Origin: Parcubacteria group bacterium GW2011_GWC1_36_108
GTDB lineage: Bacteria > Patescibacteriota > Minisyncoccia > Moranbacterales > GWC2-37-73
Assembly (NCBI GenBank): GCA_000991245.1
Contig: LBRD01000004.1
Location: forward strand, 26,235 to 90,234
Direction of reading: 5' to 3'
Length of the DNA: 64,000 nucleotides
Under the pieces are notes generated by a model. The model did no database searches. It worked only from the letters and a program-made list of their open reading frames with translations, and was not told the origin of the DNA. Shown here one piece after another: positions 2,318 to 64,000 of the stretch (position 1 is its first letter; each line of letters begins with the position of its first letter). The translations under genes were made by a program, and so were the position numbers.

Positions 2318-3160
2318 CTATACTTTCGCTCTTATGCTTTGTATGATTTGCTCACTGAAAATAGCCCTGCTGCAATAATACAAATTGGTTGCCATTTTCT
2401 GCAATTGAGCATTCTTAGATTCAATCACCATAATAAATCCTTTGCTAGGACAATCTTTCTCCAAAAAGACAAGTTCTCCGAAAGCCCCTTCTAGATCACC
2501 AAAAAGCCATTGGCCTGTTTTGTAATCAGAAATGAAATCATCGCAAGGAAATTCATCGATAGGACGAACCAACAATGTACCCTCTTTGTTGAGATACACG
2601 ACCATAAATTCCATCCGATCAACTTTCGAGAAATTTTCCAGAAAAGCTTGTGCCATATTTTCCATTACTTGTTCAGGGATTCCCTCAACAATGTCTTCAG
2701 CCAAATGCGCATCCCCTCCTAAAACGTTTTCGGAAATTATTTCTTGTGCAACCACTTCTTCGGCAATCCCACTTTTTTCTGTTTCCGCAGGATTTTGAAT
2801 TACGACGCTACCAACTGAATTTTTTTCATCCGGCAGAAATTCAACAGGCTCGAGCCAAAGACTATGAATTGGACGGATGTTCCCTTCCAAATCTTCGATT
2901 ACAACGCTCAAATGAGGCCAGGTCAAACAATCTTCAGTATGTGGAACCTTACCGCACAAACACAATGTCACACTGTTACCCTTTTTAACGTCCAAGACTT
3001 CAAATATTTCATCGTCCAACAATATTATGAAATCTCTGAAACTTGGCGGTATCGTTTTAAGATTCAGCTCCTTTTTTAATTTGACTGTTTTCCAAGTCCG
3101 CACAAAAACCTCAAATGCCACCGGATCAAAGGGTCCTCTATGTTCATGCCTATCTTTCAT
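2318..3160 (-). CDS. hypothetical protein
   Basis: 280-aa ORF between hairpin terminators. It is acidic and I recognise no family. Confidence 0.5.
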   Translation of the reverse strand: MKDRHEHRGPFDPVAFEVFVRTWKTVKLKKELNLKTIPPSFRDFIILLDDEIFEVLDVKKGNSVTLCLCGKVPHTEDCLTWPHLSVVIEDLEGNIRPIHSLWLEPVEFLPDEKNSVGSVVIQNPAETEKSGIAEEVVAQEIISENVLGGDAHLAEDIVEGIPEQVMENMAQAFLENFSKVDRMEFMVVYLNKEGTLLVRPIDEFPCDDFISDYKTGQWLFGDLEGAFGELVFLEKDCPSKGFIMVIESKNAQLQKMATNLYYCSRAIFSEQIIQSIRAKV

Positions 3161-3303
3161 AGCATCCTCCTTTCACAAAAAAATTAGCACAATGTGAAAT
3201 CTTTTCAAAACTTTATTTGTTAAGCAACTAAGTATATTATTTAATCATATTGGGAATATAAAAGCAAGCAAAAACCGCTTATATTAAAGCGGTTTTTTTA
3301 TTT

Positions 3304-3876
3304 TTATGCAAAGATTTTTTCAAGCAAGTCCTCTTTTCCTTTTTTTGTTTTAGAAGAAAAATAAATAATATTTTCAGTGTCCAACAATTCCATAATTACC
3401 CGCTGTTTTTTCACCAACTCACTGGCTTTCACTTTATCCATCTTGTTGGCCAATACAATCACTTCGTATCCATTTTCGCTAAGTAATTCCATCATTTCGA
3501 TATCAAATTTTTTCGGACCGACATTTCCATCAATAATAAGGACGATTTTGCTTGGTTTGTATTCATTGTGTTCCAAATACCACATAATCATCTTGCGCAT
3601 TTTCTCAGCTTGAGCAAGTGAAGTTCTAGCGTAGCCATATCCTGGGAGATCCACGAAATATGCTTTCTCATTAATCAAAAAGAAGTTTAGCTGCAAAGTT
3701 CGCCCTGGAGTCGAAGAAGAAATCGCCAAGCCTTTTGTGCCTGTCAAAGCATTAATCACACTGGATTTTCCCACGTTTGAGCGCCCCACAAAAGCAATTT
3801 GTGGAAGTTTCTCTTTCAGGATTGGGTCTGACCCCACCACTCCTTTTATGAATTCAGCTGTTTTTATAGTAATCAT
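3304..3876 (-). CDS. engB: ribosome biogenesis GTPase EngB/YsxC/YihA
   Basis: 190 aa with GRSNVGKSS P-loop, DLPGYGY and NKMDK motifs. Size fits EngB. Confidence 0.85.
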   Translation of the reverse strand: MITIKTAEFIKGVVGSDPILKEKLPQIAFVGRSNVGKSSVINALTGTKGLAISSSTPGRTLQLNFFLINEKAYFVDLPGYGYARTSLAQAEKMRKMIMWYLEHNEYKPSKIVLIIDGNVGPKKFDIEMMELLSENGYEVIVLANKMDKVKASELVKKQRVIMELLDTENIIYFSSKTKKGKEDLLEKIFA

Positions 3877-3954
3877 ATGTTTAACAGCCTAGCGCACTTA
3901 TCACAATAAATCAACAATAAAAAAACAGGTTGTCGAACAATCTCGACAACCCGT

Positions 3955-5058
3955 CTACTTATGATAATATGCATACCAACCTTCACGGATATTTGAAAGA
4001 CTTTCAATTCTAACCGCAAACTGTTTTGGCAATGCTTTACAAAGAGGCATAATTTTACCTCTGTGCATTACAAGCCAATGCATACCCGTTTCAAATGGCT
4101 TAATGTGCTCAATATGAAAAACCGAATTATTGCCCGCACGAAAAGCATCCGCATCTTCCTTATTGTCAAAGCATTGCCAATCAATGCTTTCGGGTTGTGT
4201 GCACCAAGATTGATCTTTTCCTTTTCTGACAATTGATTCTAACCACTGATCATCCTTATACCTAAGATCATCAACCGAAATCTCTCCGGAATCAAATAGC
4301 TTCTTGATCTGCGAAAAGAAAATGTGTTCCAACTTCCTGCAATTAGGATTAAGATAAAATTCTGTGTGCATCAATGCGCGCAAAAGCAAGAAATGATACA
4401 AGCGATATGCATTTGAAAAATACACACACTCCTTTGTCACACAAATATCCCGCCATACATCCATAATGAGTGGATGTTTTTTCAACAACTGCAAGATTTT
4501 TGCGGGCTTATTTTTGCCGAGATGATAAAGATCCAGCGCAACATATGACATTCTGTCCAACACATTAAGCAAAAAACCAGCAAACTCAAAACCCTCAACC
4601 CATCTTTCAGCTTCTTGATCATCAAAATCGTACAGCATTCTCCATTTCATACTAATACCAGCTTCGATCATATGTCTTCTATAGTTTTTGACCTCACAAA
4701 AAAACTGTTTGTTCAGGCGCATCGTCGCATCTCCGCCGGCAGGAGTTGCAATGTCGTGAGTAAGCAATGTTAGCAAAAATTTTTGAACAAACTGCTCCGA
4801 GAATCCAGACTCGCTCAAAATTATCTTCGCTACAGCCAGAAAAAAAATCGAATGATCAAATCTGCTCTGCGGAAACGGAAACCACAGATAACCGCTTTCC
4901 CCTCTTTCATTTGGATGAGTGAGACGTTGCAACTGATTAACCTTCTTTAGCCTTACAATCATAAACTCTCTGATCTCGCGACACACCACCCCAAAATTTG
5001 CCTCATTAAATTCATATTTACTGGAGCTAAAAGGTATCTCCACAATTTTACCCATCAT
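3955..5058 (-). CDS. putative HD-superfamily metal-dependent phosphohydrolase
   Basis: 367 aa. A His (FDHSI) followed by LLTHDIATPAGGD resembles the H...HD motif of HD-domain proteins. The family call is tentative. Confidence 0.45.
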   Translation of the reverse strand: MMGKIVEIPFSSSKYEFNEANFGVVCREIREFMIVRLKKVNQLQRLTHPNERGESGYLWFPFPQSRFDHSIFFLAVAKIILSESGFSEQFVQKFLLTLLTHDIATPAGGDATMRLNKQFFCEVKNYRRHMIEAGISMKWRMLYDFDDQEAERWVEGFEFAGFLLNVLDRMSYVALDLYHLGKNKPAKILQLLKKHPLIMDVWRDICVTKECVYFSNAYRLYHFLLLRALMHTEFYLNPNCRKLEHIFFSQIKKLFDSGEISVDDLRYKDDQWLESIVRKGKDQSWCTQPESIDWQCFDNKEDADAFRAGNNSVFHIEHIKPFETGMHWLVMHRGKIMPLCKALPKQFAVRIESLSNIREGWYAYYHK

Positions 5059-5181: not shown

Positions 5182-5832
5182 TTATGACTGAATTCGTTTT
5201 AAAATATCTTTGGCGCTGCTATTTTCTTCACCAATATTTTGTGATGGATGTCGTCTATTGTGATCAATCACTTCCTTGTTTGGATCACGCAACAATTCGC
5301 CAGCAGCGCGAATATTTTTGGTACTCATACCAAAATTCAACATATGAGATTTTCCGTAATTGAGTGCTTCATTTTTTGTTTCCTGCGAAATGTTTTTCCG
5401 TTTACTCATAATTTCATCATAAATCTTTCGCATATTCACTTCGCTCTTGCGCGAACTGTGATTATTGCTTTTATCGTCAATATGAGCGGATTTATTTTCA
5501 CGAATAATACTTGAAGATACTGATCCACCAACAAGATGCTTTCGCAAATCCATCATTTCATTGTGAGAAAATTCTCCCGAATGTTCAATGTCGCCCAGAA
5601 CTTTTTTAAAAACATTTTTAGTTATTCCATTACTGCCTGCAGACATTCCTCTTTTTTTGAGCGCATCATAAAAAACTTTTTTCTCGCCAGCCTTATTAAT
5701 CACATTAGAAACATTTTTATCTGCCAAAATTTCCTTAAACGCTGAACTATTTCGGCCAGCTGTCGCGCTTACTGTTTTTTTGGCAAAAATCATCTGATTT
5801 AGGCCTTTTTTTGTAAAATCTATTGCTGCCAT
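5182..5832 (-). CDS. hypothetical Lys/Ser-rich soluble protein
   Basis: 216-aa ORF. It is low-complexity and basic with no TM segment and no recognisable domain. Confidence 0.4.
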   Translation of the reverse strand: MAAIDFTKKGLNQMIFAKKTVSATAGRNSSAFKEILADKNVSNVINKAGEKKVFYDALKKRGMSAGSNGITKNVFKKVLGDIEHSGEFSHNEMMDLRKHLVGGSVSSSIIRENKSAHIDDKSNNHSSRKSEVNMRKIYDEIMSKRKNISQETKNEALNYGKSHMLNFGMSTKNIRAAGELLRDPNKEVIDHNRRHPSQNIGEENSSAKDILKRIQS

Positions 5833-5967: not shown

Positions 5968-7005
5968 ATGATAAAAAATAAGTTTAAAAAAAGAATTCTG
6001 CAAGAAATAAGCTACGCTACCGGTAAGTATTTCGTGATTCCTGAAATCGTAAATTTAACCATCACCTATCAATGCAATTTTCGTTGCAACTCTTGCACTG
6101 TTTGGCGAATGGATAAATATCCCGAACTCGCTGGCGAAAATTGGCGCAAGGTTGTTTTACAACTCAAAAAAACTCTTTCAAAAAATACTTCCATTGAATT
6201 AAGTGGCGGCGAACCATTACTGCGAAAAGATTTGACTTATTCAACCATTAAACAATTGAGAACATTTTTTGCAAATGTTGGAATCAATTCTAATGGTTCA
6301 TTATTAGATGAAGAAACTGTCATAGCATTAAAAAAAAGTGGAATCACTTTTTCAAAAATCTCCCTATATAGCATCACTGACAGCATCCACGATGCACTGC
6401 GCGGAATAACAGGTGCAGCAGAGCATGCCAAAAGTGCCATTGAATTGCTCCGTCAGCACGATATCAAAACAGATATCGGAGTCCTTATCACTTCCAAAAA
6501 TATATCCTCTATTCCAACACTGCTTGAATATTACAACCAGCCACAATATGCAGCTGTAAATATCGTCCTTCAGCCACTAGACGAACCGATAGGCCTGCCA
6601 CCAATATCAGGCAAAAACAAAATTGAAACTATCGAAAATTTATGGCCAGATGAAAAATCCGTAAACGAACTGTTTTCTTTGTTGAATAAAAATCGTCAAC
6701 TAAAAGTAAAGAATTCCGAAGCAAGTCTCCGCGCAATTCAGCAATATTATCTCGATCAAAAAAGCGCACTCAAGCGACGTTGTCTTGCTGGCCAGCGCAG
6801 TCTTGTTGTATATCCGGATGGAAATATATCCTTATGCTTTAAGGGAGCAACAATTGGAAATATTGCCAAAGAGAGTTTAAAAGATATTCTCTCTAGTAAG
6901 GCATCTATTCAGCAGCGCCTCAATATCAAAAAATGCAACAAACATTGTCGCGTTATTGGATGCAATTTTTCCAAAACTATCCCGGAAATTATTGGTCTAC
7001 ACTAA
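5968..7005 (+). CDS. radical SAM protein with C-terminal SPASM/twitch-like Cys cluster
   Basis: YQCNFRCNSC matches the CX3CX2C radical SAM motif and SGGEPLL is the glycine-rich SAM motif. The C-terminal CLAGQRSLVVYPDGNISLC...CNKHCRVIGC resembles a SPASM auxiliary-cluster pattern. Confidence 0.75.
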   Translation: MIKNKFKKRILQEISYATGKYFVIPEIVNLTITYQCNFRCNSCTVWRMDKYPELAGENWRKVVLQLKKTLSKNTSIELSGGEPLLRKDLTYSTIKQLRTFFANVGINSNGSLLDEETVIALKKSGITFSKISLYSITDSIHDALRGITGAAEHAKSAIELLRQHDIKTDIGVLITSKNISSIPTLLEYYNQPQYAAVNIVLQPLDEPIGLPPISGKNKIETIENLWPDEKSVNELFSLLNKNRQLKVKNSEASLRAIQQYYLDQKSALKRRCLAGQRSLVVYPDGNISLCFKGATIGNIAKESLKDILSSKASIQQRLNIKKCNKHCRVIGCNFSKTIPEIIGLH

Positions 7006-23957: not shown

Positions 23958-24905
23958 TTAAGCAACTTTAACCATAAATCTCACAATGTCCTCCACCACG
24001 TTTCTTGTCCTGCCGTGCGTTGGGTTGTAATGAATGTATAAGTCTGGTTTTCCGTTTATTTCAATAATATGAAAAGATTGCTCAACTGGTTTCTTTGAAA
24101 TGTCATCGCACATCACATCAATGCCGACAAGATATTTTCCTACCACCTTGGATGCCGCCACGCAAATTTTTTCAATATCAGGATGCACACTGTCGGTCAC
24201 ATCTCTCGTTTCTCCACCTTCCGCCAAACAAGAACTTTTTTTAATATACGCTATTTCATTTTTTGTCATCACACTTTCCAAAGTAAAATTTTGTTCCTTT
24301 AAAATCTGAATCAATTTTTCATCAAACTCTGTTCTTTTTTCAGTTAAGTCTTGTTTTTCTTCAATAATTTTACGCAAAGTGGAAACTCCGTCGCCAACGG
24401 CATATGGAGGAATCATCTCAAGCGCTCCGATGACTTTTTCATCCAACACAAGCAGCCTATATTCTTTTCCGAAAACCATTTCTTGTGCAATCATACTTCG
24501 ATAATGCGGCAATTCTTCTTCCAGCAAAATCATTGCATCGCGCAAATTTCCAATAAGAGGAAAGATCCCCCTACTATTGGAACCTTGAGCATCTTTCAAG
24601 ATAATTGGATATTTCAAGTTATTCAATTGCTTTTCAGCTTCTTGTTTAATAAAACTTTTTTTGTAAAAACATTCACTCTGAGGAGATGGCAGATTGTGAG
24701 CAAGCAAAAGTTTATGTGTAATATCCTTACATCTCGTCAATTGTCCACTAACAAAGGATTGGCGTGTAATAGAAATTTTACGCTCGAGTAAAATACGTTT
24801 ACCCAAAACGTTAATATAAAAACAGCCCCTTTCAGGGACAAATTCTTCAATAGTACCGCCCATATTCAAAATAGCATTTTTGATGATCAGTGGATTTTTT
24901 TTCAT
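23958..24905 (-). CDS. stand-alone ATP-grasp domain protein (cyanophycin-synthetase N-terminal-like)
   Basis: 315 aa. YRLLVLDEKVIGAL...PYAVGDGVSTLRKIIEEK resembles the CphA/RimK-type ATP-grasp core. The C-terminal IIEINGKPDL is the Mg/ATP loop. Confidence 0.65.
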   Translation of the reverse strand: MKKNPLIIKNAILNMGGTIEEFVPERGCFYINVLGKRILLERKISITRQSFVSGQLTRCKDITHKLLLAHNLPSPQSECFYKKSFIKQEAEKQLNNLKYPIILKDAQGSNSRGIFPLIGNLRDAMILLEEELPHYRSMIAQEMVFGKEYRLLVLDEKVIGALEMIPPYAVGDGVSTLRKIIEEKQDLTEKRTEFDEKLIQILKEQNFTLESVMTKNEIAYIKKSSCLAEGGETRDVTDSVHPDIEKICVAASKVVGKYLVGIDVMCDDISKKPVEQSFHIIEINGKPDLYIHYNPTHGRTRNVVEDIVRFMVKVA

Positions 24906-24968
24906 TTGCTTGTTATTTTAAAAATTTTCTATTCCAAAGATATTAATAATACAATATTTTTCAAAAAA

Positions 24969-25080
24969 TGTCAACCTCGTTAGAAATTTCCCATTTATTG
25001 CCAAATATAAATACACTATTTATCTATAAAATATTGCTAACAATTAGAAACTGCTTTTGAAATTTCTAACGGGGTCAACT
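24969..25080. promoter_or_regulatory. inverted-repeat-flanked promoter cassette, copy a
   Basis: 21-bp arms tgtcaacctcgttagaaatttc and gaaatttctaacggggtcaac are ~70 bp apart. On the minus strand the left arm supplies TTGACA, then 17 nt, then TATTAT, pointing at the ATP-grasp start. The same arms recur at 63873-63981 with a different interior. Confidence 0.55.
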
Positions 25081-25126
25081 TTAAACTGATAAAAAAGAGC
25101 TCCGAAGAGCTCTTTTAAAATCTTTT

Positions 25127-27316
25127 TCATTCTCCTGCCCTGTCCTTAAGGATAAGGTACTGTTTGTATATTCGGTATTTCCTGTAAAGATTGAAGTCTG
25201 CTTGAGTTTTTTTGTCTAGCTTAGCAATGGCCCTACTTCCTGCTACTCTATATGTTGCGTAAAGCTTTTTCAATCTTTCAAATTCGCCGGCATCTATTTT
25301 TTTAATTTTTTTGATTTGAGCGTAAGGCTTCCTTGCTACTGCCAAATTATGGGTTCTTTTGTATTTTTTATATATTCTCCAGTTTTTTCCGTGACTTTCT
25401 TTAGCAGTTATTACGGCTGCATCAGAAGGAACACTTTCTCCCGCAGAAAATTTTGTTGCGTGGGTGGTTTGAAAAGAACACACTCCACTGCTAACAGTAC
25501 AGGTTGTTTCTAGATTCCAAGAAGAATCACCATCAAATTGATAATATACATTAAGGGTTAGTCCGTTGTATTGCGCTCCAACTGGAATGGTTACGGTTAC
25601 AGGAGTTGAGAAAGTAAGGCGAATGTTTGGTACTCCTATTTTTACCGCACCAAAAGCATCATTGGTAAGCTCACTGTTTAAACTTAGGGTGATGTCCTGC
25701 GTTGTTAGTTGAGTCAGATCTAAATTTCCTCCACCCGTTTTAGTTATTATTGTGCCAGCTGGAAAAAATACTAAGGCAGCTCCGGATTGTAGAGTGTAAT
25801 CAACGTTAAAAGTTGCATTTGCTGTGTTTGTTGGATCAATGCCAGCAATAGAGATATGTCCGTTTAGGGCAGCTGCTGCCATTTTTTCTATGTTTGGGTC
25901 GATAATTGTCGCAGATTTATCAAACACATACGATTGTGTCATTATTGTTCCCTTGTTTTCAGTCGTATCATAAGAAACAGCTTTCAAAACTTTTGTTTGT
26001 CCATCATCACCATCAATAACTATTGGTCCAGTTACTTGATCGCTTGTATTGTCTGGTTCTGTTCCATCAATTGTGTAATATATTGTTGGAATAACATCAT
26101 CGCCAACTGGTGGAATTAAGGTAATAGTTTGAGCAGAAAAATATGTTCCACTTTCAACGTTTGCTATTGGTGCATCTGGACCGATTGTGTCTGGAATTGG
26201 CAGCGTCGTAAACGAAACTTCTTCACCATAACCAATTCCTGCCCCGCCACTAGCATAAGCTTGCACATAATAAATCGTATCAGGACTAAGCCCTGCCATT
26301 GGGCAGGAAAAAGCTCCTTCAACGCCCATTCCTAAATTACAAGAACCGGTATAATTTCCTGATTCCGTTCCCCAAGAAATAGTCCTGGATGGGATAAACG
26401 GATTTCCTCTAAAAGTCATATCCCCATTTGCAGTCGCTGATGTTTGAGTAATATCAGAAACCGCATTTGTAACAACTATTGGAGGAGCTGGAACTGCTTC
26501 TGTAGTGAATGAAAGGATTTCTCCATAAGATGATCCTGCACTATTATACGCGTAGGCCTGAAAATAATAAGTTGTGTCAGGCGTGAGACCCGTCATTTCA
26601 GCAGAATACACACCCGCAGGACCTGTACCAGGAGGACCATCCGTGTTCCACAGATTTGCTTCAATTGGTTCATTAACCCATTGGTGGATAAGTCTTGTAG
26701 TATTCTCTCCTCCAGAATCTAAAAGTTCAGCATTAACCATAGCTGATGTTTGTGTCACATCTGAAGCTGCAACAGTAGCAACGGTAGGCGCTAAAACGAC
26801 AAATGAATTATCAATAAACATCTCAAGTTCTGAAACACCAACTGATGAGAACTCATTGGCAATAGCCGTAATATGTAATTTATAAAAAAAATAATTTTCT
26901 GGAGTAGCAACTACAAATTCTTGAAGTTGAAAATCACTGAAAACAACATCACTTCTGGAATCAAGAACTACCCAATCAGCTCCATTAATACTACCTTGAA
27001 ATTCCCAACTCTTAGGAGCCATATTGGCAGCATTTCCATTACTCGTGATAGCATATTTAGCAACTCTTACTGGATTACTATCAGTAAATTGATATCCCAC
27101 CCATTGCGGTAGCCCAGGATCTGCAATCCAAGTAGACACAGTATGATCAAAGGCTGATACCATACTTCCAAGTCCTGTGCTTACTGTTATCACTCCAGAA
27201 GGAAGAAGATTGGTAGTCATTGCTGGAATTATGTTAGCAGAGTATTCTGCTTTAACAATCCCCGCTGAAAAAAACAGAGCAAAACCAATTAACATCAATA
27301 ACAATTTGATTTTCAT
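25127..27316 (-). CDS. large secreted surface protein (F5/8 type C-like N-domain, two FN3-like domains, chitobiase-C-like domain, basic C-terminal tail)
   Basis: Signal peptide. Motifs TPDTTYYFQAYAYNSAGSSYGE and SPDTIYYVQAYASGGAGIGYGE are FN3-like. IYYTIDGTEPDNTSD is CHB_HEX_C-like. The C-terminal YRIYKKYKR...YRKYRIYKQY tail is basic. Confidence 0.65.
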   Translation of the reverse strand: MKIKLLLMLIGFALFFSAGIVKAEYSANIIPAMTTNLLPSGVITVSTGLGSMVSAFDHTVSTWIADPGLPQWVGYQFTDSNPVRVAKYAITSNGNAANMAPKSWEFQGSINGADWVVLDSRSDVVFSDFQLQEFVVATPENYFFYKLHITAIANEFSSVGVSELEMFIDNSFVVLAPTVATVAASDVTQTSAMVNAELLDSGGENTTRLIHQWVNEPIEANLWNTDGPPGTGPAGVYSAEMTGLTPDTTYYFQAYAYNSAGSSYGEILSFTTEAVPAPPIVVTNAVSDITQTSATANGDMTFRGNPFIPSRTISWGTESGNYTGSCNLGMGVEGAFSCPMAGLSPDTIYYVQAYASGGAGIGYGEEVSFTTLPIPDTIGPDAPIANVESGTYFSAQTITLIPPVGDDVIPTIYYTIDGTEPDNTSDQVTGPIVIDGDDGQTKVLKAVSYDTTENKGTIMTQSYVFDKSATIIDPNIEKMAAAALNGHISIAGIDPTNTANATFNVDYTLQSGAALVFFPAGTIITKTGGGNLDLTQLTTQDITLSLNSELTNDAFGAVKIGVPNIRLTFSTPVTVTIPVGAQYNGLTLNVYYQFDGDSSWNLETTCTVSSGVCSFQTTHATKFSAGESVPSDAAVITAKESHGKNWRIYKKYKRTHNLAVARKPYAQIKKIKKIDAGEFERLKKLYATYRVAGSRAIAKLDKKTQADFNLYRKYRIYKQYLILKDRAGE

Positions 27317-37047: not shown

Positions 37048-37893
37048 CTACTTTAATCTTTTTTTATTTTTTGCTTGATTTAAAAAATTGTTTCCAGTGA
37101 CCACGCTTTTACCAGTTTTTTCCTCAAGCTCAAGTCTGGCATTTCTGGCAATTTTTCCACCTCGCTTAGCTGGAATCTTATTTTCTTCCAAGCCTCTTGC
37201 TTCAATACTTTGTGCGATTTCACGAGTCGAAAGCTCTGCCAATGCCGTGAAAACGAGCTCCGCATCAGACATGTGATCACGAAGATTTTGAGTTTTTAAG
37301 TTTTTCAAATTTTTGTGTGCCTTGATAGTCAACTCGCTCCATTCTTCATGAATTATATTTGTCAAAATTGCAAATTCATCTCTTTCTTTAACTTCATTGT
37401 TTTTCCAATAATCAGTCAATTTATTTCTGATTTCTTGCCCCATCATCCTTTGCTGAATCCACTTCTCACTTCTTCCCATTTTCTGCCAATATGATCTGGA
37501 ACGATTTATTCCCTTTTCTGGATCAGACATTTCCTGGATTCTTTCGTATCCAGCTTTTGCCAACCACAATTTGATCGGCTCAGCTTTTTTAGATGGAACA
37601 GTTTGAACAAGACGCAAAATTGTTTCAACATCAGCCGCATCGGTTTCGCGCATTTTCCCATCCTCTGCAACTAATTTCAACCGGTTACATTTTGTAACCA
37701 CTTCACTTCCCTCGGCTCTTAAGCGATTCTTTAAAACCTTCCAATAATTTCTAGCTGCCTGAAAATCTTCTTGCTCAATCAAGGCAGCAATAATATCAAT
37801 AACTGAAAAATACCAAGTTTCCTTTTCCTCATCATAGTGCCTGCGAATGTTAAAATTTTCAAAAATTGCCAGTGAATTGCTTACTTTTTTCAT
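37048..37893 (-). CDS. Bro-N domain protein of the DinD (DNA-damage-inducible protein D) family
   Basis: N-terminal AIFENFNIRRHYDEEKETWYFSVIDIIAAL matches the Bro-N/KilA-N pattern. The C-terminus FAILTN...KAHKNLKNLKTQNLRDHMSDAELVFTALAELSTRE aligns with my memory of the E. coli DinD C-terminus. No search was run. Confidence 0.6.
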   Translation of the reverse strand: MKKVSNSLAIFENFNIRRHYDEEKETWYFSVIDIIAALIEQEDFQAARNYWKVLKNRLRAEGSEVVTKCNRLKLVAEDGKMRETDAADVETILRLVQTVPSKKAEPIKLWLAKAGYERIQEMSDPEKGINRSRSYWQKMGRSEKWIQQRMMGQEIRNKLTDYWKNNEVKERDEFAILTNIIHEEWSELTIKAHKNLKNLKTQNLRDHMSDAELVFTALAELSTREIAQSIEARGLEENKIPAKRGGKIARNARLELEEKTGKSVVTGNNFLNQAKNKKRLK

Positions 37894-41023: not shown

Positions 41024-42361
41024 CTATCTTACTAGTTCTTCTTCGATAACTTTCCGATCATTCCAAGGAATCTTCTTATCCCCAACTACCATCGTTTCAA
41101 AATCACCCATACCTGTGATGCAAATAATATCTCCCTCTTGAGCAATCTCAATCGCTTTTCTGATTGCTTCCCTCCTGTCGATAATTTTCCAAAAATTTTG
41201 CCCTTCTGTTTTATTTTTAATCCCAACAGCAATTTCTTCAATAATTTGCTCAGGTTTTTCATAGTACGGTTCATCATTTGTAAGAATGACAACATCAGCA
41301 TATTTGGAGACAACCCCCCCCATAATAGGTCGTTTTCCACGATCTCGATCGCCGCAAGAACCAAAAATAGCAATAATTTTAGAATCAGACTTTTTAGCCT
41401 GAAAAAGCGTGCTATAAAGCCTTTCCAAAGCATTTGGCGTCAAAGCAAAATCAACCAAAATATGCAGCCCTAAATCGTTTTCTACGGCCTCCATTCGCCC
41501 TGCCACGCCCTTTATTTTTGCCAGTGCGTCTTTAATCGTTTCTATCCCAATCTCCTCACTAAGGCCCACACACGTTGCAGCAAGGGCATTCTCGACATTA
41601 AAAAGTCCAGGCAATTGCAAATTGAGTCTAATACTTTTTTTCTCATCCATACCCGCCAATTTAGCAGCAGAAAAATTTCCTATTTCAAACGATGAGCCAT
41701 TAATTCCAATTTCAATGTTTTCCGCATTTACAATTTTTATTTTTACATTATCATTTTGATTTATGAGATTTGTACTTTCAATTTTTGTTGTGTATCCATA
41801 TTTTTTTTCCACATTAAAATTCACAAATTCATTAGGATTCTCCATATCTAAATTAACAATATTTGTTCCTTTATTTTTTTCTACATTTTCAAAAAGTTTT
41901 TTCTTCGCTTCACGATATTTTTCCATCGTCTTATGATAATCCAAATGCTCACGCGTAACATTAGTAATAACTGCCGTCTTATAGTCAACTCCCCACACAC
42001 GATATTGATCTAGTGAATGAGAAGATGTTTCCAAAACCAAATATTCACAGCCTGCATCAACAGCTTTTTTGATAAATTTTTGTAAAGTAAGGGCAGATTC
42101 GGTCGTGAAGTGAGAAAGATTTTTTTCCTCAACTCCATTAATTTTGAAATTAATCGTTGAAGCCATTGCAACTTTCCGGCCAGCTTCTTCCAAAATTTTT
42201 GTGACCATCTGAACAGTTGTTGTTTTTCCATCAGTTCCCGTAACACCAATTACCTTTAATTTTCGTGATGGAAAACCATACCAAACATTAGCCACAACGG
42301 CTTGCGCTAAGTGGTACAGGTTTTTAATATTTTGGGGAAAAAGTTTTTTAATATAGTGCAT
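41024..42361 (-). CDS. murE: Mur ligase family protein (MurE-like)
   Basis: GVTGTDGKTTT P-loop, a DxxREH-type region and C-terminal domain pattern of Mur ligases. MurE versus other Mur ligases was not resolved. Confidence 0.7.
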   Translation of the reverse strand: MHYIKKLFPQNIKNLYHLAQAVVANVWYGFPSRKLKVIGVTGTDGKTTTVQMVTKILEEAGRKVAMASTINFKINGVEEKNLSHFTTESALTLQKFIKKAVDAGCEYLVLETSSHSLDQYRVWGVDYKTAVITNVTREHLDYHKTMEKYREAKKKLFENVEKNKGTNIVNLDMENPNEFVNFNVEKKYGYTTKIESTNLINQNDNVKIKIVNAENIEIGINGSSFEIGNFSAAKLAGMDEKKSIRLNLQLPGLFNVENALAATCVGLSEEIGIETIKDALAKIKGVAGRMEAVENDLGLHILVDFALTPNALERLYSTLFQAKKSDSKIIAIFGSCGDRDRGKRPIMGGVVSKYADVVILTNDEPYYEKPEQIIEEIAVGIKNKTEGQNFWKIIDRREAIRKAIEIAQEGDIICITGMGDFETMVVGDKKIPWNDRKVIEEELVR

Positions 42362-47458: not shown

Positions 47459-48328
47459 TCAAACACTTTTATGCTGTTTTTGTCTTTTTTTAATAGCATA
47501 TTTAATAATGTATTCGGCTGGATTTATTCCAGTTATTAATTTGAATTTTTCCCACTGTGGAGAGACATTAACTTCAATGACATAGGTTTTTCCTTCATAT
47601 TCAAACAGATCCACGCCCGCTATTTCATAGTCCATCGCTGCTGTTGATTCCAAGGCAACTTTTTTCATCTCTACGCTAACCTCTATTTTTTCAGCTTTGG
47701 TTCCACGAATATTGGATTTATATTGCCCTTCATTAATAAAACGTTGAAACCCACCGATAACTTCGCCACCGACAACAAAGATTCTAAAATCATTTACGAT
47801 TGGAAAATATTGTTGCGCTAAATATTCAGTTGTATTTTTTTCAAAAAATTCCAGCGCTTCGTTGGCTGTGTTTAATTTCTGAATCCCCCTACCCTTTCTT
47901 CCAAAAATCGGTTTAGCAATAATAGGAAATTCTACGTCTTCTGTTAACCTTTTCCATCCTTCAAAATTATTAGCTTGAAATGTTGCTGGATGATCGATAC
48001 CACATTCAAAAAGTCTTTTGGCTTGATGCATTTTTCCTCGCACATAACCGCCAGCGAGTGATTGTTCAATAACTATTTTATCATTATCTACCAGCATTTC
48101 AGCTAATAGCTGTGCTTCATAAATATGATTATTATATCCCCTGAAAATAACCACATCAAAATCGCAGATGTCCAACTCGCCACACATCGCTGCAAGATTG
48201 TCACCAATAGTTTCAAAAGTAATTTCCGAAAATTTACAGACTATTCCTTGATGACCAGCTTTTTCAATAGCATCAAGCAAATCTTGAGTGTTTTCAGTTA
48301 GTGAACCAATGATAATAAATTTCAACAT
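47459..48328 (-). CDS. RimK-like ATP-grasp amidoligase
   Basis: 289 aa. FPIIAKPIFGRKGRGI, FRIFVVGGEVIGG and GVDLFEYEGKTYVIEVNVSP follow the RimK order of ATP-grasp motifs. Confidence 0.7.
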   Translation of the reverse strand: MLKFIIIGSLTENTQDLLDAIEKAGHQGIVCKFSEITFETIGDNLAAMCGELDICDFDVVIFRGYNNHIYEAQLLAEMLVDNDKIVIEQSLAGGYVRGKMHQAKRLFECGIDHPATFQANNFEGWKRLTEDVEFPIIAKPIFGRKGRGIQKLNTANEALEFFEKNTTEYLAQQYFPIVNDFRIFVVGGEVIGGFQRFINEGQYKSNIRGTKAEKIEVSVEMKKVALESTAAMDYEIAGVDLFEYEGKTYVIEVNVSPQWEKFKLITGINPAEYIIKYAIKKRQKQHKSV

Positions 48329-48342
48329 ATTTTTAAATTATA

Positions 48343-49311
48343 TTAAGCAATGTTTTCAATAAAAGCATCAAAATCTTTCTGTTGTAATTCCTTATCGTTA
48401 AGCGCTTCGATCAAACAAAGGCCTGGAACAGAATTCATTTCAATAAAAAGTGGTTCACCTTTTTCGTTAAAAAAGAAATCCAAAGAATATTGAGCACGCG
48501 CAAACATTTTTAATTTTGCAGTAATTTTTTCTGTTACATCCAAAACACTTTGCGGTATTTTCTCAAGCGGAACACGTTTACTCGTTGCTCCCTGATGCAT
48601 ATTAGTAAACAGAGACCCTCCTTGAGCAATTCGAGAAAGAGCATAAAGTGGCTGGTGATTAATGTAAGTAATTCTAAGATCTGCCAATTCACCTTTTTCA
48701 GAAAATCCAGGAATACCATTTTCATTTTTAACAAATTCTTGTAACAGCATCGGATAAATAAACTTTTCTTTTAAAATAGTTTCTTTATTACCAATAACAA
48801 TACCAAATCCGCCAGAGCCCTGAAGAGGTTTGGCAACAATTTTTGATGTTTTTATTTTTTCAATTGCAATTTTCAGGTCATTTAAGTTCATTGCCACGAA
48901 TGTTTTCGGCATATATTCAGAAAACAAAGCGTACTGCGAAAGTTTACTATCAACCATGGCTCGAAAAAGCGGATTATTAAAAACGATTGAATTGCTGGCC
49001 ATAGCCATTTTTAAATCAAACAACTTATGCTCGCTAGAGCCAGGCGTCTTATCATAAATAAGATCAGCTGTGATTTCTTTTTCAACTCTTTGCCATTTGC
49101 CGCTCCTAAAAGCCCATGCCTTGATAAAAATATTTTTCTTGATATCATACCAATCCACACTTGCACGATACATTTGAATATTTTTTTCAAGCGCCATAGT
49201 GTGCCATTTTTCAAAAGCTCTTCTTGTTTCTTCGTACGATATTGGAATTTCCCTATCCCAATCATCGCCTGTATAAATAACAACTATGTTTTTACTTTTT
49301 TCGTTTTCCAT
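48343..49311 (-). CDS. ATP-grasp domain protein (second ligase of the cluster)
   Basis: 322 aa. IVAKPLQGSGGFGI, ADLRITYINHQPLYA and IEMNSVPG are ATP-grasp blocks. The gene is 14 bp from the upstream gene. Confidence 0.65.
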   Translation of the reverse strand: MENEKSKNIVVIYTGDDWDREIPISYEETRRAFEKWHTMALEKNIQMYRASVDWYDIKKNIFIKAWAFRSGKWQRVEKEITADLIYDKTPGSSEHKLFDLKMAMASNSIVFNNPLFRAMVDSKLSQYALFSEYMPKTFVAMNLNDLKIAIEKIKTSKIVAKPLQGSGGFGIVIGNKETILKEKFIYPMLLQEFVKNENGIPGFSEKGELADLRITYINHQPLYALSRIAQGGSLFTNMHQGATSKRVPLEKIPQSVLDVTEKITAKLKMFARAQYSLDFFFNEKGEPLFIEMNSVPGLCLIEALNDKELQQKDFDAFIENIA

Positions 49312-49322
49312 AAAATACTTTA

Positions 49323-50765
49323 TTAACTAACTTTATTCACATCAATTAAAAACTTTCCCAGATTTCTCCTACCGATGATAGCAGCATATTTAAGTTCATC
49401 TCTGGCGGCAATATTAACATTCGCATTTATTGCAAAGTTATCCATAACAAAAGTCATTTTTACTTTTGGCCTAAAAGACACACCGTTAGATGCATAGATT
49501 AAATCTATGTCATAAAGATCGCTGTGTTTATATTTATTTTTCAAGCCCTTAAGAATTTCTGGTCCTTCTTCTCTGGAAAATCCGTTTGGCAATTCAATTT
49601 TTTCAAAAAAATCCAAAACATCGCCATAGCCAAGCTGTCTAGCCATATCAATATCAATAGAAGTTGACATTGCACCCGTATCAATTTTGGCCTCAATTTC
49701 TATAGTTGCTTCATTTTTTCCAATAAATTTAACTTTTTCTACTGTGCCAATAACTTTTCGTCCAGAAATTTCTTCGACTTCTTCTTCAACTTCTCCTCCG
49801 AATAAATCTCTTCCTACGCGCACACCGCGCGCTGCTGTTTTTATTTTAAGACCCTTGATGCGCTCAAGTCTTTCTTTAAGACCACTGAGGTTTGCAACTT
49901 GAATAGCAAGACCCGGACGAGCATTGATTTCCAAAAAAACCGGACCGCGCTCGCGATCAATCGCAACATCAGCGCCCAAAAATCCCATCCCTGAAACTTC
50001 CTGCGCTTTTACAGCTAAAAGTAAAATATCTTTCCAATATGGAATTCGAATTCCTGAAAGAAGCATTCTGGTGCCTGGGACATAATCAATAATTTTTCCT
50101 TTACCCAAAACTGCAGTCGTGGTCACGCCTGAAGCTAAGTCAATTCCCACTCCGATACCTCCTTGCTGCAAATTAGCTTTTCCTCCAGATTCTTTTGTTG
50201 GAAGACGAAGCATCGCCATTACTGGTATATGATTAAAAACAATCACGCGGATATCAGGAATTCCTTTATATGCATACGGCTTAAAAAGTTTAAGCAAAGT
50301 CAAACGTTCTTCAAAAAAAGCAATGTCTGGCATATTAGCCAATGAAAATGCTCCATCCAAAATATTTAAAATATGACTCTTGATATCTTCCACTGTAACT
50401 TTGCTGCCATCAGCTTTAATCCAAACAGGCAACGGTATTTCATTTTCATCACTTACTAAAACTTTTCCACTATTTTTCTTTCTGCCATACACTACCATAA
50501 TTCCACCTCCGCCATATCCACGATTTGGCTTAAGCGCAAAAGAAGACGGCAAAGAAGACCAGTCGAAATTTTCCAATTCCTCGGCTGTTCTGATTTTTGC
50601 AAGCAATTTTGGCACAGGAATTCCACCTTTTTTAAGCATCCTCTTGCTTAAAATTTTATCGTCTGCCAATTTTTTTGCTTTTTTTCTATTGTATGGACGA
50701 ATGTAATCAAGGTTACGAGCATTCATGCCAAGCAACTTATTTCCATTCTTAAAAATTTCAAACAT
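49323..50765 (-). CDS. alpha-L-glutamate ligase-like ATP-grasp (ATPgrasp_ST) fused to a retropepsin-like Zn_protease domain
   Basis: The N-terminal LGMNARNLDYIRPYNRKKAKKLADDKILSKRML...GGIPVP matches my memory of the rimK-related alpha-L-glutamate-ligase family. The C-terminal ~150 aa with KIDTGAMSTSIDI (DTG motif) resembles the PF05618 putative ATP-dependent zinc protease. Confidence 0.65.
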   Translation of the reverse strand: MFEIFKNGNKLLGMNARNLDYIRPYNRKKAKKLADDKILSKRMLKKGGIPVPKLLAKIRTAEELENFDWSSLPSSFALKPNRGYGGGGIMVVYGRKKNSGKVLVSDENEIPLPVWIKADGSKVTVEDIKSHILNILDGAFSLANMPDIAFFEERLTLLKLFKPYAYKGIPDIRVIVFNHIPVMAMLRLPTKESGGKANLQQGGIGVGIDLASGVTTTAVLGKGKIIDYVPGTRMLLSGIRIPYWKDILLLAVKAQEVSGMGFLGADVAIDRERGPVFLEINARPGLAIQVANLSGLKERLERIKGLKIKTAARGVRVGRDLFGGEVEEEVEEISGRKVIGTVEKVKFIGKNEATIEIEAKIDTGAMSTSIDIDMARQLGYGDVLDFFEKIELPNGFSREEGPEILKGLKNKYKHSDLYDIDLIYASNGVSFRPKVKMTFVMDNFAINANVNIAARDELKYAAIIGRRNLGKFLIDVNKVS

Positions 50766-50775
50766 AAAAAAATTA

Positions 50776-50865
50776 TGTCATTCCGGACTCGATCCGGAAT
50801 CCCGAGCTTTAACGCACAAACCGTTATGCTACGAGAGATCCTGAAACAAATTCAGGATGACACAG
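50776..50865 (+). repeat. divergent GC-rich hairpin element related to copies A-C
   Basis: tgtcattccggactcgatccggaatcc hairpin plus atcctgaaacaaattcaggat hairpin. The ends TGTCATTCC and GGATGACACA form inverted termini. Confidence 0.5.
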
Positions 50866-50868
50866 TGA

Positions 50869-51534
50869 TTACTTTAAATTCTTCAGCACTTCCCTAAAAC
50901 GAAAATATTCATTCAAGCGCAAGCCATCCCATTTCCCTAAAAAGATATTAATTGGAATTGTAATTAAAATCAGCCATGGGAAAGCTACAATGCCTTTTAT
51001 CAATGCTGGCCAACTTGCCAAATAATATCCAACAAGAGAAATTACCAATGTTTCCACCGCCAAAATGAGAGCTGCGCGATTTCCCTTTTCAATTTGAGCT
51101 GCCACAAATTTTTCCACGATCGTAATCATAATCAAAATTGGGAAAATTGAAACTGCAGCTAAACCGGTTCGCTGCATTGCTCCTCCAAAACTAAGCAGCA
51201 TCAAAATTGAAAGTGCAATAATGCTAAGTGTGATGGCCACGCGCGGCAGATACAAAATACGAAGACCTTTCAGTGCAAAGCGCAGCAGCATTCCAACCAA
51301 AATCACCACAATAAAAATAAGAACGCCGTAGCGAAGTTGTGGTACAGCCAAGAAAGCAAAGGTCACGATCGCAGGCGTATAAATACCAAAAGCCTTAATT
51401 CCGATTACCTGACGAAAAAAAGCGATCAACGTTACCACAATTGGCAACATTAAAAGCAAGATAACCGTATCAAGCGGCACACCTTGTGCAATAAAATATT
51501 TAATGAGAGGACTGATGTTTTCCATAATTTTCAT
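50869..51534 (-). CDS. 7-TM membrane protein (candidate 7TM partner of the ATP-grasp operon)
   Basis: Seven hydrophobic helices were counted by eye. It is the first gene of the operon with three ATP-grasp genes immediately downstream. The start is chosen at MKIM, and the upstream MLYVTCS codons coincide with the ATGTTACATG box. Confidence 0.55.
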   Translation of the reverse strand: MKIMENISPLIKYFIAQGVPLDTVILLLMLPIVVTLIAFFRQVIGIKAFGIYTPAIVTFAFLAVPQLRYGVLIFIVVILVGMLLRFALKGLRILYLPRVAITLSIIALSILMLLSFGGAMQRTGLAAVSIFPILIMITIVEKFVAAQIEKGNRAALILAVETLVISLVGYYLASWPALIKGIVAFPWLILITIPINIFLGKWDGLRLNEYFRFREVLKNLK

Positions 51535-51600
51535 AGAGCATGTAACATATAACATGCAACATTAACTCAAAACAATAAGATTACAAATCAAAAAAACGAA

Positions 51601-54284: not shown

Positions 54285-54320
54285 ACCGTCTCGCGCAAAC
54301 TACGCGAGACGGTTTTTTTA
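54285..54320. terminator. bidirectional terminator
   Basis: accgtctcgcgcaaactacgcgagacggttttttta. Confidence 0.6.
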
Positions 54321-62578: not shown

Positions 62579-63718
62579 TTACACAATCAATCCTGTGCGG
62601 AGTTTTTCGACGATGTGCTGTCCTGCTTCGGTGGTGTCTCCAGATTGGAGTGAAAATTCGCAAACATCTCCAATTGCTTTGGCTTCAAGAATCTCAGCAA
62701 CTTTTTTCAACTGATCATTATTAATGCACTTAATCACGCCGCGCACTTGCCCAGGGGTTTCGTTATAAAGCACCATAAAAATTTTGCCAGCAGAATAATT
62801 TTCTTTAATTTTATCCAAAATAAAAGGTACGTCACTCGGTTTTGAGCGGCTCTGCACAAAATCCTCCAAAAACACGGGCGCCCAAGCCAAAGAAATTTCA
62901 TCTTCCCAATACAATCTCGCCATCACACGACCCCAAAGTTTCAAAAGATGAAGCGGCTGTGTCTTATAAAGATAGCGAATAATTTTTTGTTGATCAGCTC
63001 CCTTTGTCATCAGCATTGCACCAATTTGCAATGATTTTGGCGAGGTGTTTTTTTTCTGAAAACTGTTAGTTGCATCAATAATTCCAGTGAGCAAACTTTC
63101 CGCCATATTCTCATCAATATTTTTTTCATTTATTTTAGAAAACAAATCCGCCACCACTTCAGATGTCGAAGACGCAGTAATATCAACAATATTTACTTGT
63201 CCAAAATTATCATTCTCCGTGTGATGATCAATATTAACAACAGGAACCTCATAAAAAATATCAGGATTTTCTTCATACACCTTTCCGAGTGATTCCTTGT
63301 CGGGACTGCCAAGCACGATTACTAAATCATATTTGAATTTTGCAGGAATAAAAGAAAAGTCGCGCGGATCAATTGAACCTTTTTCTGGAGTAATAAAAAT
63401 TCGCAATTCATCTTCAACTCTTTCTGTGCGCACGTTAGTAATCTTGTTGAACTTTGTGTTAAATGCCAACACAAAATCTCTTGCGCCTGCCAACGAATCC
63501 ATCAAATCTTCCGGTTTTGTCAAAAATGAAAAACGCTGCAAATAATTTTCATCACTTGGAACTACAACTGTTGCTTCAATATTATTTTTTTTCAAAAAGA
63601 AATAAGTTGCCCACGCAGAGCCAACCGCATCGCCAGAAAAATCTTGCGCCATAAAGATAAGAACGTGTTTGGCGTTTTTCAAAACATTATCTAATTGTTG
63701 CGCGAGATCTAAACTCAT
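62579..63718 (-). CDS. DHH-family phosphoesterase (NrnA-like)
   Basis: The DHH motif NIDHHTEN and the DHHA1-like C-terminal region (GGGH-type replaced by GQH) indicate an oligoribonuclease/pAp phosphatase-like enzyme. Confidence 0.65.
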   Translation of the reverse strand: MSLDLAQQLDNVLKNAKHVLIFMAQDFSGDAVGSAWATYFFLKKNNIEATVVVPSDENYLQRFSFLTKPEDLMDSLAGARDFVLAFNTKFNKITNVRTERVEDELRIFITPEKGSIDPRDFSFIPAKFKYDLVIVLGSPDKESLGKVYEENPDIFYEVPVVNIDHHTENDNFGQVNIVDITASSTSEVVADLFSKINEKNIDENMAESLLTGIIDATNSFQKKNTSPKSLQIGAMLMTKGADQQKIIRYLYKTQPLHLLKLWGRVMARLYWEDEISLAWAPVFLEDFVQSRSKPSDVPFILDKIKENYSAGKIFMVLYNETPGQVRGVIKCINNDQLKKVAEILEAKAIGDVCEFSLQSGDTTEAGQHIVEKLRTGLIV

Positions 63719-63723
63719 ATCGT

Positions 63724-63775
63724 TTCAGGTTTTAGGTTCTAGGTTTTAGGTGATAGGTTCTAGATTTTAGGTTTA
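63724..63775. repeat. TAGGTTYTAGG direct repeats upstream of the nrnA-like start
   Basis: caggttttaggttctaggttttaggtgataggttctagattttagg, followed by an AACTTTATR 9-mer array at 63790-63835. Confidence 0.55.
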
Positions 63776-63872
63776 TTGAATTTTTACTTTACAAACTTTA
63801 TAAACTTTACCAACTTTATGAACTTTATAACTATTTAGCTAAGTAATATAAAGTAGCAGGCATTTTGAGTAA

Positions 63873-63981
63873 TGTCAACCCCGTTAGAAAAATGACAATG
63901 CAGAAAATTATGGTATAGTATCTTGATATATTAGACTATATATTATAAAAAATTACTTTTGCATTTTTCTAACGGGGTCAA
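63873..63981. promoter_or_regulatory. inverted-repeat-flanked cassette, copy b
   Basis: The arms tgtcaaccccgttagaaaaatg and catttttctaacggggtca are 19/21 identical to copy a (24969-25080), but the AT-rich interior is different. Confidence 0.5.
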
Positions 63982-64000
63982 TAAAATGCTTGACAACAAG

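Follow-up and report, generated by a model that had tools for sequence, protein, structure and literature searches.

Two short palindromic cassettes in the genome of a Candidatus Moranbacteria bacterium, a member of the Candidate Phyla Radiation (CPR)/Patescibacteria, are insertions that landed in the −35 box of a host promoter and left that promoter intact. We studied them within a stretch of 64,000 nucleotides, referred to here as the window, in which copy A lies upstream of a RimK-like ATP-grasp gene and copy B upstream of a DHH/NrnA-like gene. Both cassettes are very probably copies of a non-autonomous mobile element of the kind known as type II MITEs (short for miniature inverted-repeat transposable elements). 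The insertion itself, the duplication of the target, the terminal repeats, membership in a wider family and the conservation of the host promoters are direct observations.

Anatomy of the two copies and their empty sites

The two elements and the sequences that border them lie at the following positions.

24975..25074, minus strand: element copy A, 100 bp, bounded by the first C of CCTCGTTAGAAA and the last G of TTTCTAACGGGG
24975..24990: copy A arm 1 (terminal inverted repeat), CCTCGTTAGAAATTTC, carrying the 12-nt family core with one mismatch (T for C)
25059..25074: copy A arm 2 (terminal inverted repeat), GAAATTTCTAACGGGG
24971..24974, minus strand: promoter-side 4-nt duplication of copy A, TTGA on the minus strand, bases 1-4 of the −35 hexamer TTGACA (24969-24974)
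25075..25078, minus strand: distal 4-nt duplication of copy A, TTGA on the minus strand, which with the CC of the element reads TTGACC
63879..63977, minus strand: element copy B, 99 bp; both its 12-nt cores and its 16-nt inverted repeat, CCCCGTTAGAAAAATG / CATTTTTCTAACGGGG, are perfect
63879-63894 and 63962-63977: copy B arms, 16 nt each
63875..63878, minus strand: promoter-side 4-nt duplication of copy B, TTGA, which belongs to the −35 hexamer TTGACA at 63873-63878 on the same strand
63978..63981, minus strand: distal 4-nt duplication of copy B, TTGA on the minus strand

Written as the plus strand, the sequence of copy A is tg TCAA, CCTCGTTAGAAATTTC ... GAAATTTCTAACGGGG, TCAA c, and that of copy B is tg TCAA, CCCCGTTAGAAAAATG ... 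CATTTTTCTAACGGGG, TCAA t. An earlier annotation made from the letters alone (the sequence-only reading) had placed two cassettes at 24969-25080 and 63873-63981, and on re-reading the sequence both the positions and the arm sequences hold. The 21-bp inverted arms that it described, however, have to be redrawn. Each copy has an inverted repeat of 16 nt, with one mismatch in copy A and none in copy B; the two copies have only its first 12 nt, CCCCGTTAGAAA, in common, positions 13-16 being TTTC in one and AATG in the other. The outer TCAA (TTGA on the minus strand) lies outside the inverted repeat in both copies and is a 4-nt direct repeat.

The arm pattern occurs five times in the window at up to three mismatches, against 0.25-0.5 expected, and none of 100 shuffled sequences reached five. 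A relaxed scan for paired arms leaves two real copies in the 64 kb, which are solitary and 38.9 kb apart. The interiors measure 68 nt in copy A (GC 0.22) and 67 nt in copy B (GC 0.19), in a window with a GC content of 0.367. They show no significant similarity to each other in either orientation (z 1.5 and 0.85), consistent with the earlier description of unrelated AT-rich interiors. Copy A is too small to hold a gene, and its unique interior has no match among 233 family members. The predicted folds of both copies are far more stable than those of shuffled sequences (z −4.9 to −7.6), with most of this stability coming from the terminal repeat. On the minus strand the flanking UUGA can lengthen the stem by G-U pairing, which holds for the TTGA flank alone.

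The evidence that these are insertions comes from orthologous loci, which were retrieved through homologues of the two downstream proteins. At site A, four relatives (L247, L242, L244 and L246), with flanking protein identities of 94, 89, 88 and 86% (94% in L247), carry the uninterrupted sequence ...AAAG TTGA C(A/T)TTTTT...TATTGTATTATT. The window instead reads ...TTAAAG TTGA [100 bp] TTGA CATTTTTT..., the sequence after the promoter-side TTGA being CATTTTTTGAAAAATATTGTATTATT. The closest relative, L247, retains the terminator hairpin found at 25093..25116 in the window, upstream of its empty site. At site B, three relatives (L251, L252 and L253; flanking protein identity 91, 90 and 87%) are empty and read ...TTGTCAAGC(T)TTTA TTGA CAT(A/T)GC...TGCTACTTTATATTAC, whereas the filled site reads ...TTTTA TTGA [99 bp] TTGA CATTAC... 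in the window and in L248 and L249. The latter two are other assemblies of the same organism, in which copy B is present and identical.

At both loci the sole difference between filled and empty sites is the element plus a second TTGA. Because the relatives have uninterrupted sites and TTGA is doubled in the window, copies A and B are insertions. In both cases the target was the TTGA within a conserved TTGACA −35 hexamer, and the promoter remained whole. We are thus highly confident in describing them as recent, promoter-preserving insertions of small mobile elements.

The promoters and genes around the two sites are arranged as follows.

24946..24974, minus strand: native promoter of the RimK-like ATP-grasp gene; TTGACA, 17 nt, TATTAT; 11/12 matches
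23958-24905, minus strand: RimK-like ATP-grasp gene, downstream of copy A
25093..25116: terminator hairpin belonging to the upstream 729-aa gene, at the far edge of the intergenic spacer that holds copy A
25127-27316, minus strand: 729-aa gene, upstream of the copy A spacer
62579-63718, minus strand: DHH/NrnA-like gene, downstream of copy B
63990..63995, plus strand: TTGACA, putative −35 of the divergent neighbor, judged from alignment and gene layout

At the copy A promoter, TTGAC...TATTGTAT.ATT is invariant across five genomes. The copy B promoter consists of TTGACA, a 17-nt spacer ending in TGC, and TACTTT. The −10-like hexamers, TATTAT at copy A and TGC-TACTTT at copy B, are conserved in all relatives. 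Empty site B contains the back-to-back hexamers TGTCAA-N7-TTGACA, a pair that we read as divergent −35 boxes and that copy B separates by 103 nt. A sigma-70 type factor, RpoD, is encoded in the window.

These comparisons settle several points of the sequence-only reading. It had the left arm of copy A provide a minus-strand promoter, TTGACA followed after 17 nt by TATTAT. Such a promoter is indeed present (11/12 matches) and conserved in relatives, but it is the native promoter of the gene, whose TTGA was duplicated by the insertion rather than supplied by the arm. Its placement of copy B upstream of an nrnA-like gene is confirmed by the DHH/NrnA-like gene found there. Among the roles it had considered, termini of a cassette-type element is the one that the empty sites and the 4-nt target duplications bear out.

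A family with invariant ends and its landing sites

Two samples were used to place the window copies in a wider context. For the genome sample, we scanned 596 Gb, one genome per species, with TYRACCCCGTTAGAAA and obtained at least 119 loci; about 1,100 single matches are estimated to be expected by chance in a data set of this size. The unbiased sample consisted of metagenome contigs carrying two 12-nt cores 53-83 nt apart, with at least 120 loci. Counts given below for the unbiased sample cover 124 elements; the full unbiased sample comprises 153 elements among the matches listed. The TTAA/TAAA class in the genome sample is a product of the search pattern.

The sequence-only reading would have counted the existence of these two copies alone as a refutation; elements with these ends in fact number in the hundreds across genomes and metagenomes. 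An exact inverted arm pair is present in 27 of the at least 119 genome loci, and in most of the remaining loci a second arm, with 0-2 mismatches, stands no more than 260 nt away. According to record titles, which are the depositors' labels, the hosts include CPR lineages (among them Parcubacteria, Saccharibacteria, Doudnabacteria, Buchananbacteria and Giovannonibacteria), Planctomycetota (Pirellulales, Sedimentisphaerales and Phycisphaerae), Omnitrophota, Desulfobacterota, 'delta proteobacteria', Edwardsbacteria and Stahlbacteria.

Family members range from 26 to 220 bp between their outer ends, and the spacing of the arms, or loop length, from 5 to about 200 nt. In the position profile of the unbiased sample, conservation is confined to T-N-N-A followed by CCCCGTTAGAAA(T); the 12-nt core is invariant, and T occupies position 13 in 54% of 248 ends. 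Interiors are unique in 150 of the 233 elements from all loci, and two subfamilies with interiors in common have 29 and 27 members. Both of these contain two GC-rich internal hairpins (alignments A4 and A5; 25-26 aligned members). In subfamily 1, compensatory changes preserve the interior hairpins, with GC in 12 and CG in 11 members at one pair, and one of its stems alternates between G-C, C-G and A-U pairs among members. This pattern of sequence covariation suggests selection for, or templated repair of, the hairpin structure.

Copies can be dense, with up to 4-5 per 8-14 kb, and both large subfamilies occur together on one contig, L220. A nested insertion is found in L172 (6799-6898), where a TAAA-flanked element lies within a TGAA-flanked one. 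In L128 (615-800), two elements stand in tandem with one TGAA common to both and with inverted outer flanks. In L103 (~6206-6233), a right arm meets a left arm across a single TTGA, forming a 12-4-12 palindromic site. TTAGAAT / ATTCTAA-like tandem repeats directly adjoin family elements in L006 (~3060-3100), L020 (~5520-5555) and L065 (~3940-3970), and these TTAGAAT-type repeats resemble the TTAGAAA of the element end.

Some members lie within genes. In L062, an element at 1616-1683 is in frame in a Mur ligase gene and adds about 26 residues (VNPVRNHARASAPKGPLGRAISNGAG), which align to a gap in the window orthologue (41024-42361). Longer open reading frames (ORFs) also run through elements in L096, L015 and L108, and in-frame copies account for at most 11 of 83. 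A BLAST search with the main subfamily consensus found nothing in PLSDB plasmids or GenBank phages and one match only in IMG/VR, inside a Mu-like prophage. This contig, L121, carries two to three family elements in the early region of the prophage (3245-3324, 3962-3990), together with genes for a MuA-type transposase, a MuB-like AAA protein, Gam and GemA. Such a prophage is a possible vehicle for spread between hosts.

Searches for a known family gave no counterpart. In Rfam, tRNAs alone reach the gathering score on the window, nothing relevant appears around copy A at E values up to 10, and no family covers the elements over 18 related loci. The searchable literature yielded no relevant description of the arm or end sequence, nor of CPR MITEs or palindromic repeats. 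The text of the largest survey of prokaryotic MITEs, covering 183,232 genomes (PMC11602168), makes no mention of Patescibacteria, Planctomycetota or Omnitrophota. The elements thus apparently represent a widespread, undescribed family in uncultivated phyla.

The flanks of the family carry the signature of a fixed-length target duplication. In 84 of the 124 unbiased elements the two flanks match over exactly 4 nt, compared with 5, 3, 4 and 0 of 124 when the same test is applied to lengths of 2, 3, 5 and 6; in the full unbiased sample, 100 of 153 elements have the exact 4-nt repeat. The duplicated 4-mers are TAAA/TTTA (44), TGAA/TTCA (27), TTGA/TCAA (9) and a tail of others that includes TATG, CAAG, CGAA, TTTG and TGTA. 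Non-canonical, diverse 4-mers make up about 10% of the perfect repeats. Neither TTAA nor TATA occurs as a perfect duplication in the 124 unbiased elements, among the matches listed. A variable stagger of 2-4 nt anchored on the right flank was also considered and dropped, the unbiased sample having 5 elements in the 3-nt class against 2.7 by chance and 7 in the 2-nt class against 8.1.

The TTGA-flanked elements show that landing in a −35 box is not peculiar to the window. With other TTGA sites in the same loci as controls, C follows the gene-side TTGA in 38 of 50 elements (TTGACA in 29) versus 17% of control sites, and a −10-like hexamer lies at 16-18 nt in 30 of 50 versus 8.8% of controls. In the unbiased subset of TTGA-flanked loci, TTGAC is found in 6/10 and a −10-like hexamer in 5/10. 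Because C and the −10 hexamer are both enriched over controls, we conclude that TTGA-class insertions lie in genuine −35 hexamers. A new promoter arising from the distal TTGACC was rejected, a −10-like hexamer accompanying it in 4 of 46 cases, the same as in controls. Of the 124 elements, 19 have a TAAA/TGAA flank that coincides with the actual stop codon of the gene upstream, a notable share but one on which a general stop-codon rule was rejected. The landing pattern may reflect target preference or the survival of harmless insertions in compact genomes. At L057 (1447-1480), a partnerless single arm supplies both −35 box and spacer to a promoter-like site, TTGACC-N16-TATAAA, which closely precedes a sequence judged by eye to be tRNA-like; this may be a decayed element or a chance match.

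Mobilization, known systems and rival explanations

In the type II MITE reading, an enzyme encoded elsewhere and acting in trans would recognize both 12-13-nt ends, cut the target with a 4-nt stagger and join the element to it, and repair would then duplicate the 4 nt. Both window insertions hit the TTGA of TTGACA, and the promoter-side TTGA together with the native CA restores the −35 box. The −35 box, spacer and −10 box stay intact because TTGA is duplicated, and the DNA upstream of the −35 box is replaced by the element end. The window copies lie upstream of the −35 boxes, in DNA that is probably untranscribed. Their position ahead of the transcription starts makes near-neutral passengers the most likely reading, with at most a change to the upstream promoter context.

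We base the type II MITE assignment on size, inverted repeats, fixed-length duplication, empty sites, and multiple and nested copies. The elements are short and non-coding, have inverted repeats and a fixed 4-nt duplication, are absent from orthologous sites (four for copy A, three for copy B) and exist in multiple copies. Like type II MITEs, they are small (26-220 bp), non-coding, bounded by terminal inverted repeats and by a duplication of fixed length, multi-copy, missing from empty sites in relatives, nested in places and variable inside. The differing interiors had led the sequence-only reading to call the cassettes the opposite of a MITE; in type II MITEs, though, the terminal repeats alone are conserved (PMC10969869). 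The elements differ from type II MITEs in that no cognate insertion sequence is known for them, in that the invariant end is just 12-13 nt yet identical across several phyla (as labeled), and in their orientation-specific insertion with unequally conserved flanks.

Other small repeats share part of this profile. Correia elements (CREE) of Neisseria have 26-bp repeats and a TA duplication, and to our knowledge no transposase is known for them in their host. They resemble the present family as small inverted-repeat elements found mostly just upstream of genes. Their repeats are unrelated in sequence, and Correia elements carry their own promoter boxes, whereas here the −35 box is the duplicated target and the inward TTGACC of the element yields a promoter no more often than controls (4/46). 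Interaction with sigma-70 promoter elements is a further trait in common with Correia elements (PMC10969869). Rickettsia palindromic elements are likewise palindromic and mobile, occur in reduced genomes and can lie in frame in genes (PMC10969869). They are unrelated in sequence to the present elements, among which in-frame copies are a minority and 4-nt duplications are clear.

PiggyBac elements target TTAA, and IS1380 elements produce a 4-5-bp duplication. The resemblance to their ends consists of a 4-nt duplication and of ends that begin with CCC and contain TAGAAA, the piggyBac end being CCCTAGAAAGATA, a string confirmed in published papers. It covers few bases only and may be due to chance. 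We did not adopt an assignment to piggyBac/IS1380: TTAA is never a perfect duplication in the 124 unbiased elements, and no transposase of that family was found.

Integron attC sites have the core GTTRRRY and the inverse core RYYYAAC in the arrangement 5'-RYYYAAC ... GTTRRRY-3'. They share with the present elements a conserved stem and a variable loop of widely varying length, and the arms hold GTTAGAA and TTCTAAC, which resemble the attC core motifs. Here, however, the order is reversed, 5'-GTTAGAA ... TTCTAAC-3' on both strands, and the copies are flanked by duplications. An attC site was rejected for this reverse motif order and for the solitary copies, the lack of cassette arrays and the lack of an integrase.

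IS200/IS605 elements insert in fixed orientation at a specific tetranucleotide and make no target duplication. Together with REP/REPIN-RAYT systems (repetitive extragenic palindromes and their associated transposases), they share with the present family hairpin-forming repeats, and their fixed-orientation insertion at a tetranucleotide echoes the GGGG|TRAA flank. Neither system makes a duplication, the hairpins of those elements are separate and subterminal, and REPs are confined to single species. The present family, by contrast, duplicates diverse 4-mers, has two ends that form a stem together and keeps those ends identical across phyla. When the fixed tetranucleotide of IS200/IS605-type elements is sought in the family, a flank asymmetry of 38 versus 7 is found alongside diverse, perfectly duplicated 4-mers.

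The mobilizing enzyme was sought in the window and beyond. No transposase, integrase, invertase, recombinase or HUH domain was detected by Pfam in 43 ORFs of the window (about 20 shorter ORFs and 54318-56369 excluded), in agreement with the earlier statement that the window holds no invertase or recombinase. All-against-all clustering of 883 ORFs neighboring family copies returned housekeeping families only and no recurrent mobilizer. No recombinase or Y1 (HUH) transposase was seen near the copies, whose neighbors are housekeeping genes. Long-range arm pairs with matching flanks, considered as ORF-bearing copies, turned out to be separate small elements and were rejected. The best candidate for an autonomous copy, in L072, proved to contain ftsA together with a second short ORF rather than a transposase, and the L057 candidate is the single arm at the promoter-like site of a tRNA-like sequence. 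The transposase of the Mu-like prophage is not proposed as the mobilizer: Mu transposition produces a 5-bp target duplication, and no such duplication flanks the elements.

Several observations weigh against a classical type II MITE. No autonomous copy or transposase was found in the window or in the ~1.6 Mb of loci that hold several hundred arms. The orientation of the interior is perfectly linked to that of the non-palindromic flanks in both subfamilies, and the flanks are unequal, the one after GGGG staying TRAA/TTGA while the other deviates (38 versus 7, p = 3e-6; 20 versus 3 in the genome sample). Just ahead of the left flank stands a purine (G 57%, A 31%), which symmetric cut-and-paste does not explain. 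Some members measure 26-29 bp between their outer ends, too short for duplex synapsis of the two ends, although these may be later internal deletions. Inverted repeats as long as those of the window copies are rare, with 3 of 124 unbiased elements reaching at least 16 nt, and neutrality at the window promoters is a presumption. Symmetric cut-and-paste predicts neither the orientation linkage nor the flank asymmetry.

An alternative that we consider possible, though clearly the less likely, is that the element is mobile by a route other than a staggered-cut DDE transposase. It would then be a cross-phylum mobile hairpin moved by an orientation-specific mechanism instead of classical cut-and-paste, for which a circular or single-stranded intermediate and a recombinase or HUH enzyme are candidates; we put this forward tentatively. 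In one variant, the ends of a circular intermediate would be joined as TTTCTAACGGGG-TRAA-CCCCGTTAGAAA, giving a recombinase-type site of 12-4-12 layout whose partner in the target would be a short TRAA/TTGA core. In another, an HUH-type enzyme would insert a single-strand hairpin beside a fixed tetranucleotide, the element carrying its own 3' tetranucleotide. The strict orientation link and the conservation of the post-GGGG flank speak for such a route, as do the purine before the left flank, which mirrors the GGGG|TRAA end, the conserved stem with loops of 5 to about 200 nt, the compensatory changes in the subfamily 1 hairpins (GC 12, CG 11), the joined 12-4-12 site present in the chromosome at the tandem junction in L103, and the failure to find a transposase. 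Against it stand the roughly 10% of perfect repeats that are diverse 4-mers, as expected of a repair duplication and not of a fixed core or an element-borne tetranucleotide, and the finding of no recombinase or Y1 transposase near any copy. For the HUH variant, moreover, the left flank directly abuts the stem and leaves no space for an IS200/IS605-style guide segment; for the recombinase variant, a 4-nt central region is atypical of tyrosine recombinases. If this alternative were true, R|TRAA or TTGA(C) would serve as the anchor of insertion, and stop codons and −35 hexamers, that is, gene boundaries, would be preferred in the streamlined genomes of CPR, Omnitrophota and Planctomycetota.

Three further explanations were considered. 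The sequence-only reading had suggested that the arms are recombination sites of an invertible promoter, and 16-nt inverted repeats do flank a short AT-rich segment near promoters. The conserved −35 and −10 boxes lie outside the repeats, however, relatives lack the whole segment, the 5-nt loops of some family members cannot invert, and no invertase or recombinase domain was found among the window ORFs scanned with Pfam. The NCBI, ENA and JGI assemblies of the same organism also agree on one orientation, a weak test given that these are consensus sequences. Such a switch is therefore exceedingly improbable. Its other suggestion, paired operator half-sites through which a DNA-looping regulator would control both genes, draws on the identical sequences that adjoin two −35 boxes. 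It is very hard to reconcile with orthologous promoters that lack any arm in seven related loci, with an arm spacing that varies from 5 to about 200 nt across the family, and with copies that have unrelated housekeeping genes as neighbors, sit at a stop codon or fall within coding sequence; the flanking duplications, too, point to insertion. We give similarly little credence to genes for small structured RNAs, or to cis-regulatory RNAs closed by a conserved stem. The stable folds (z −4.9 to −7.6), the lengthening of the stem by the minus-strand UUGA through G-U pairs and the compensatory changes in the interior hairpins of some subfamilies would all suit an RNA. Yet there is no Rfam match at any threshold, the window copies lie upstream of −35 boxes in probably untranscribed DNA, the stability comes mostly from the terminal repeat, and the flanks are direct repeats of variable sequence in which the G-U extension is limited to TTGA.

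Genomic surroundings and significance

The leader between the promoter of the DHH gene and its start codon contains two short tandem arrays, at 63722-63774 and 63786-63830, which read on the plus strand as GTTTTAG repeated 7.6 times and ACTTTATAA repeated five times. This leader is the most variable intergenic part among the relatives, in which other short repeats occupy it. Elsewhere in the window, three ATP-grasp genes stand in a row at 47459-51555 (RimK-like, glutathione-synthetase-like and sugar-transfer-associated) beside a 7TM_transglut protein; this run is separate from the RimK-like gene downstream of copy A. A 281-aa protein encoded at 37048-37893 has a weak match to BRO-N (E 6e-5, below the Pfam cut-off), a domain frequent in phage and virus proteins.

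For annotation, these results mean that the palindromic arms near these promoters are to be read as insertion scars of a mobile element and not as operators or switch sites, and that the −35 box beside them belongs to the host promoter. The cassettes are not a new regulatory device. The 12-nt end combined with the 4-nt repeat provides a simple, searchable marker with which such elements can be annotated in metagenome-assembled genomes.

For the biology of the hosts, the empty sites point to activity recent enough to differ between lineages whose flanking proteins are about 90% identical, in the small and compact genomes of the CPR. An end of 12 nt that is invariant across labeled phyla suggests a shared mobilizing enzyme or gene flow among uncultivated groundwater and sediment lineages, and the mobilization shows features that the classical model leaves unexplained. 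The promoter-preserving insertions described here show a way in which mobile elements can maintain themselves where intergenic spacers are very compact.

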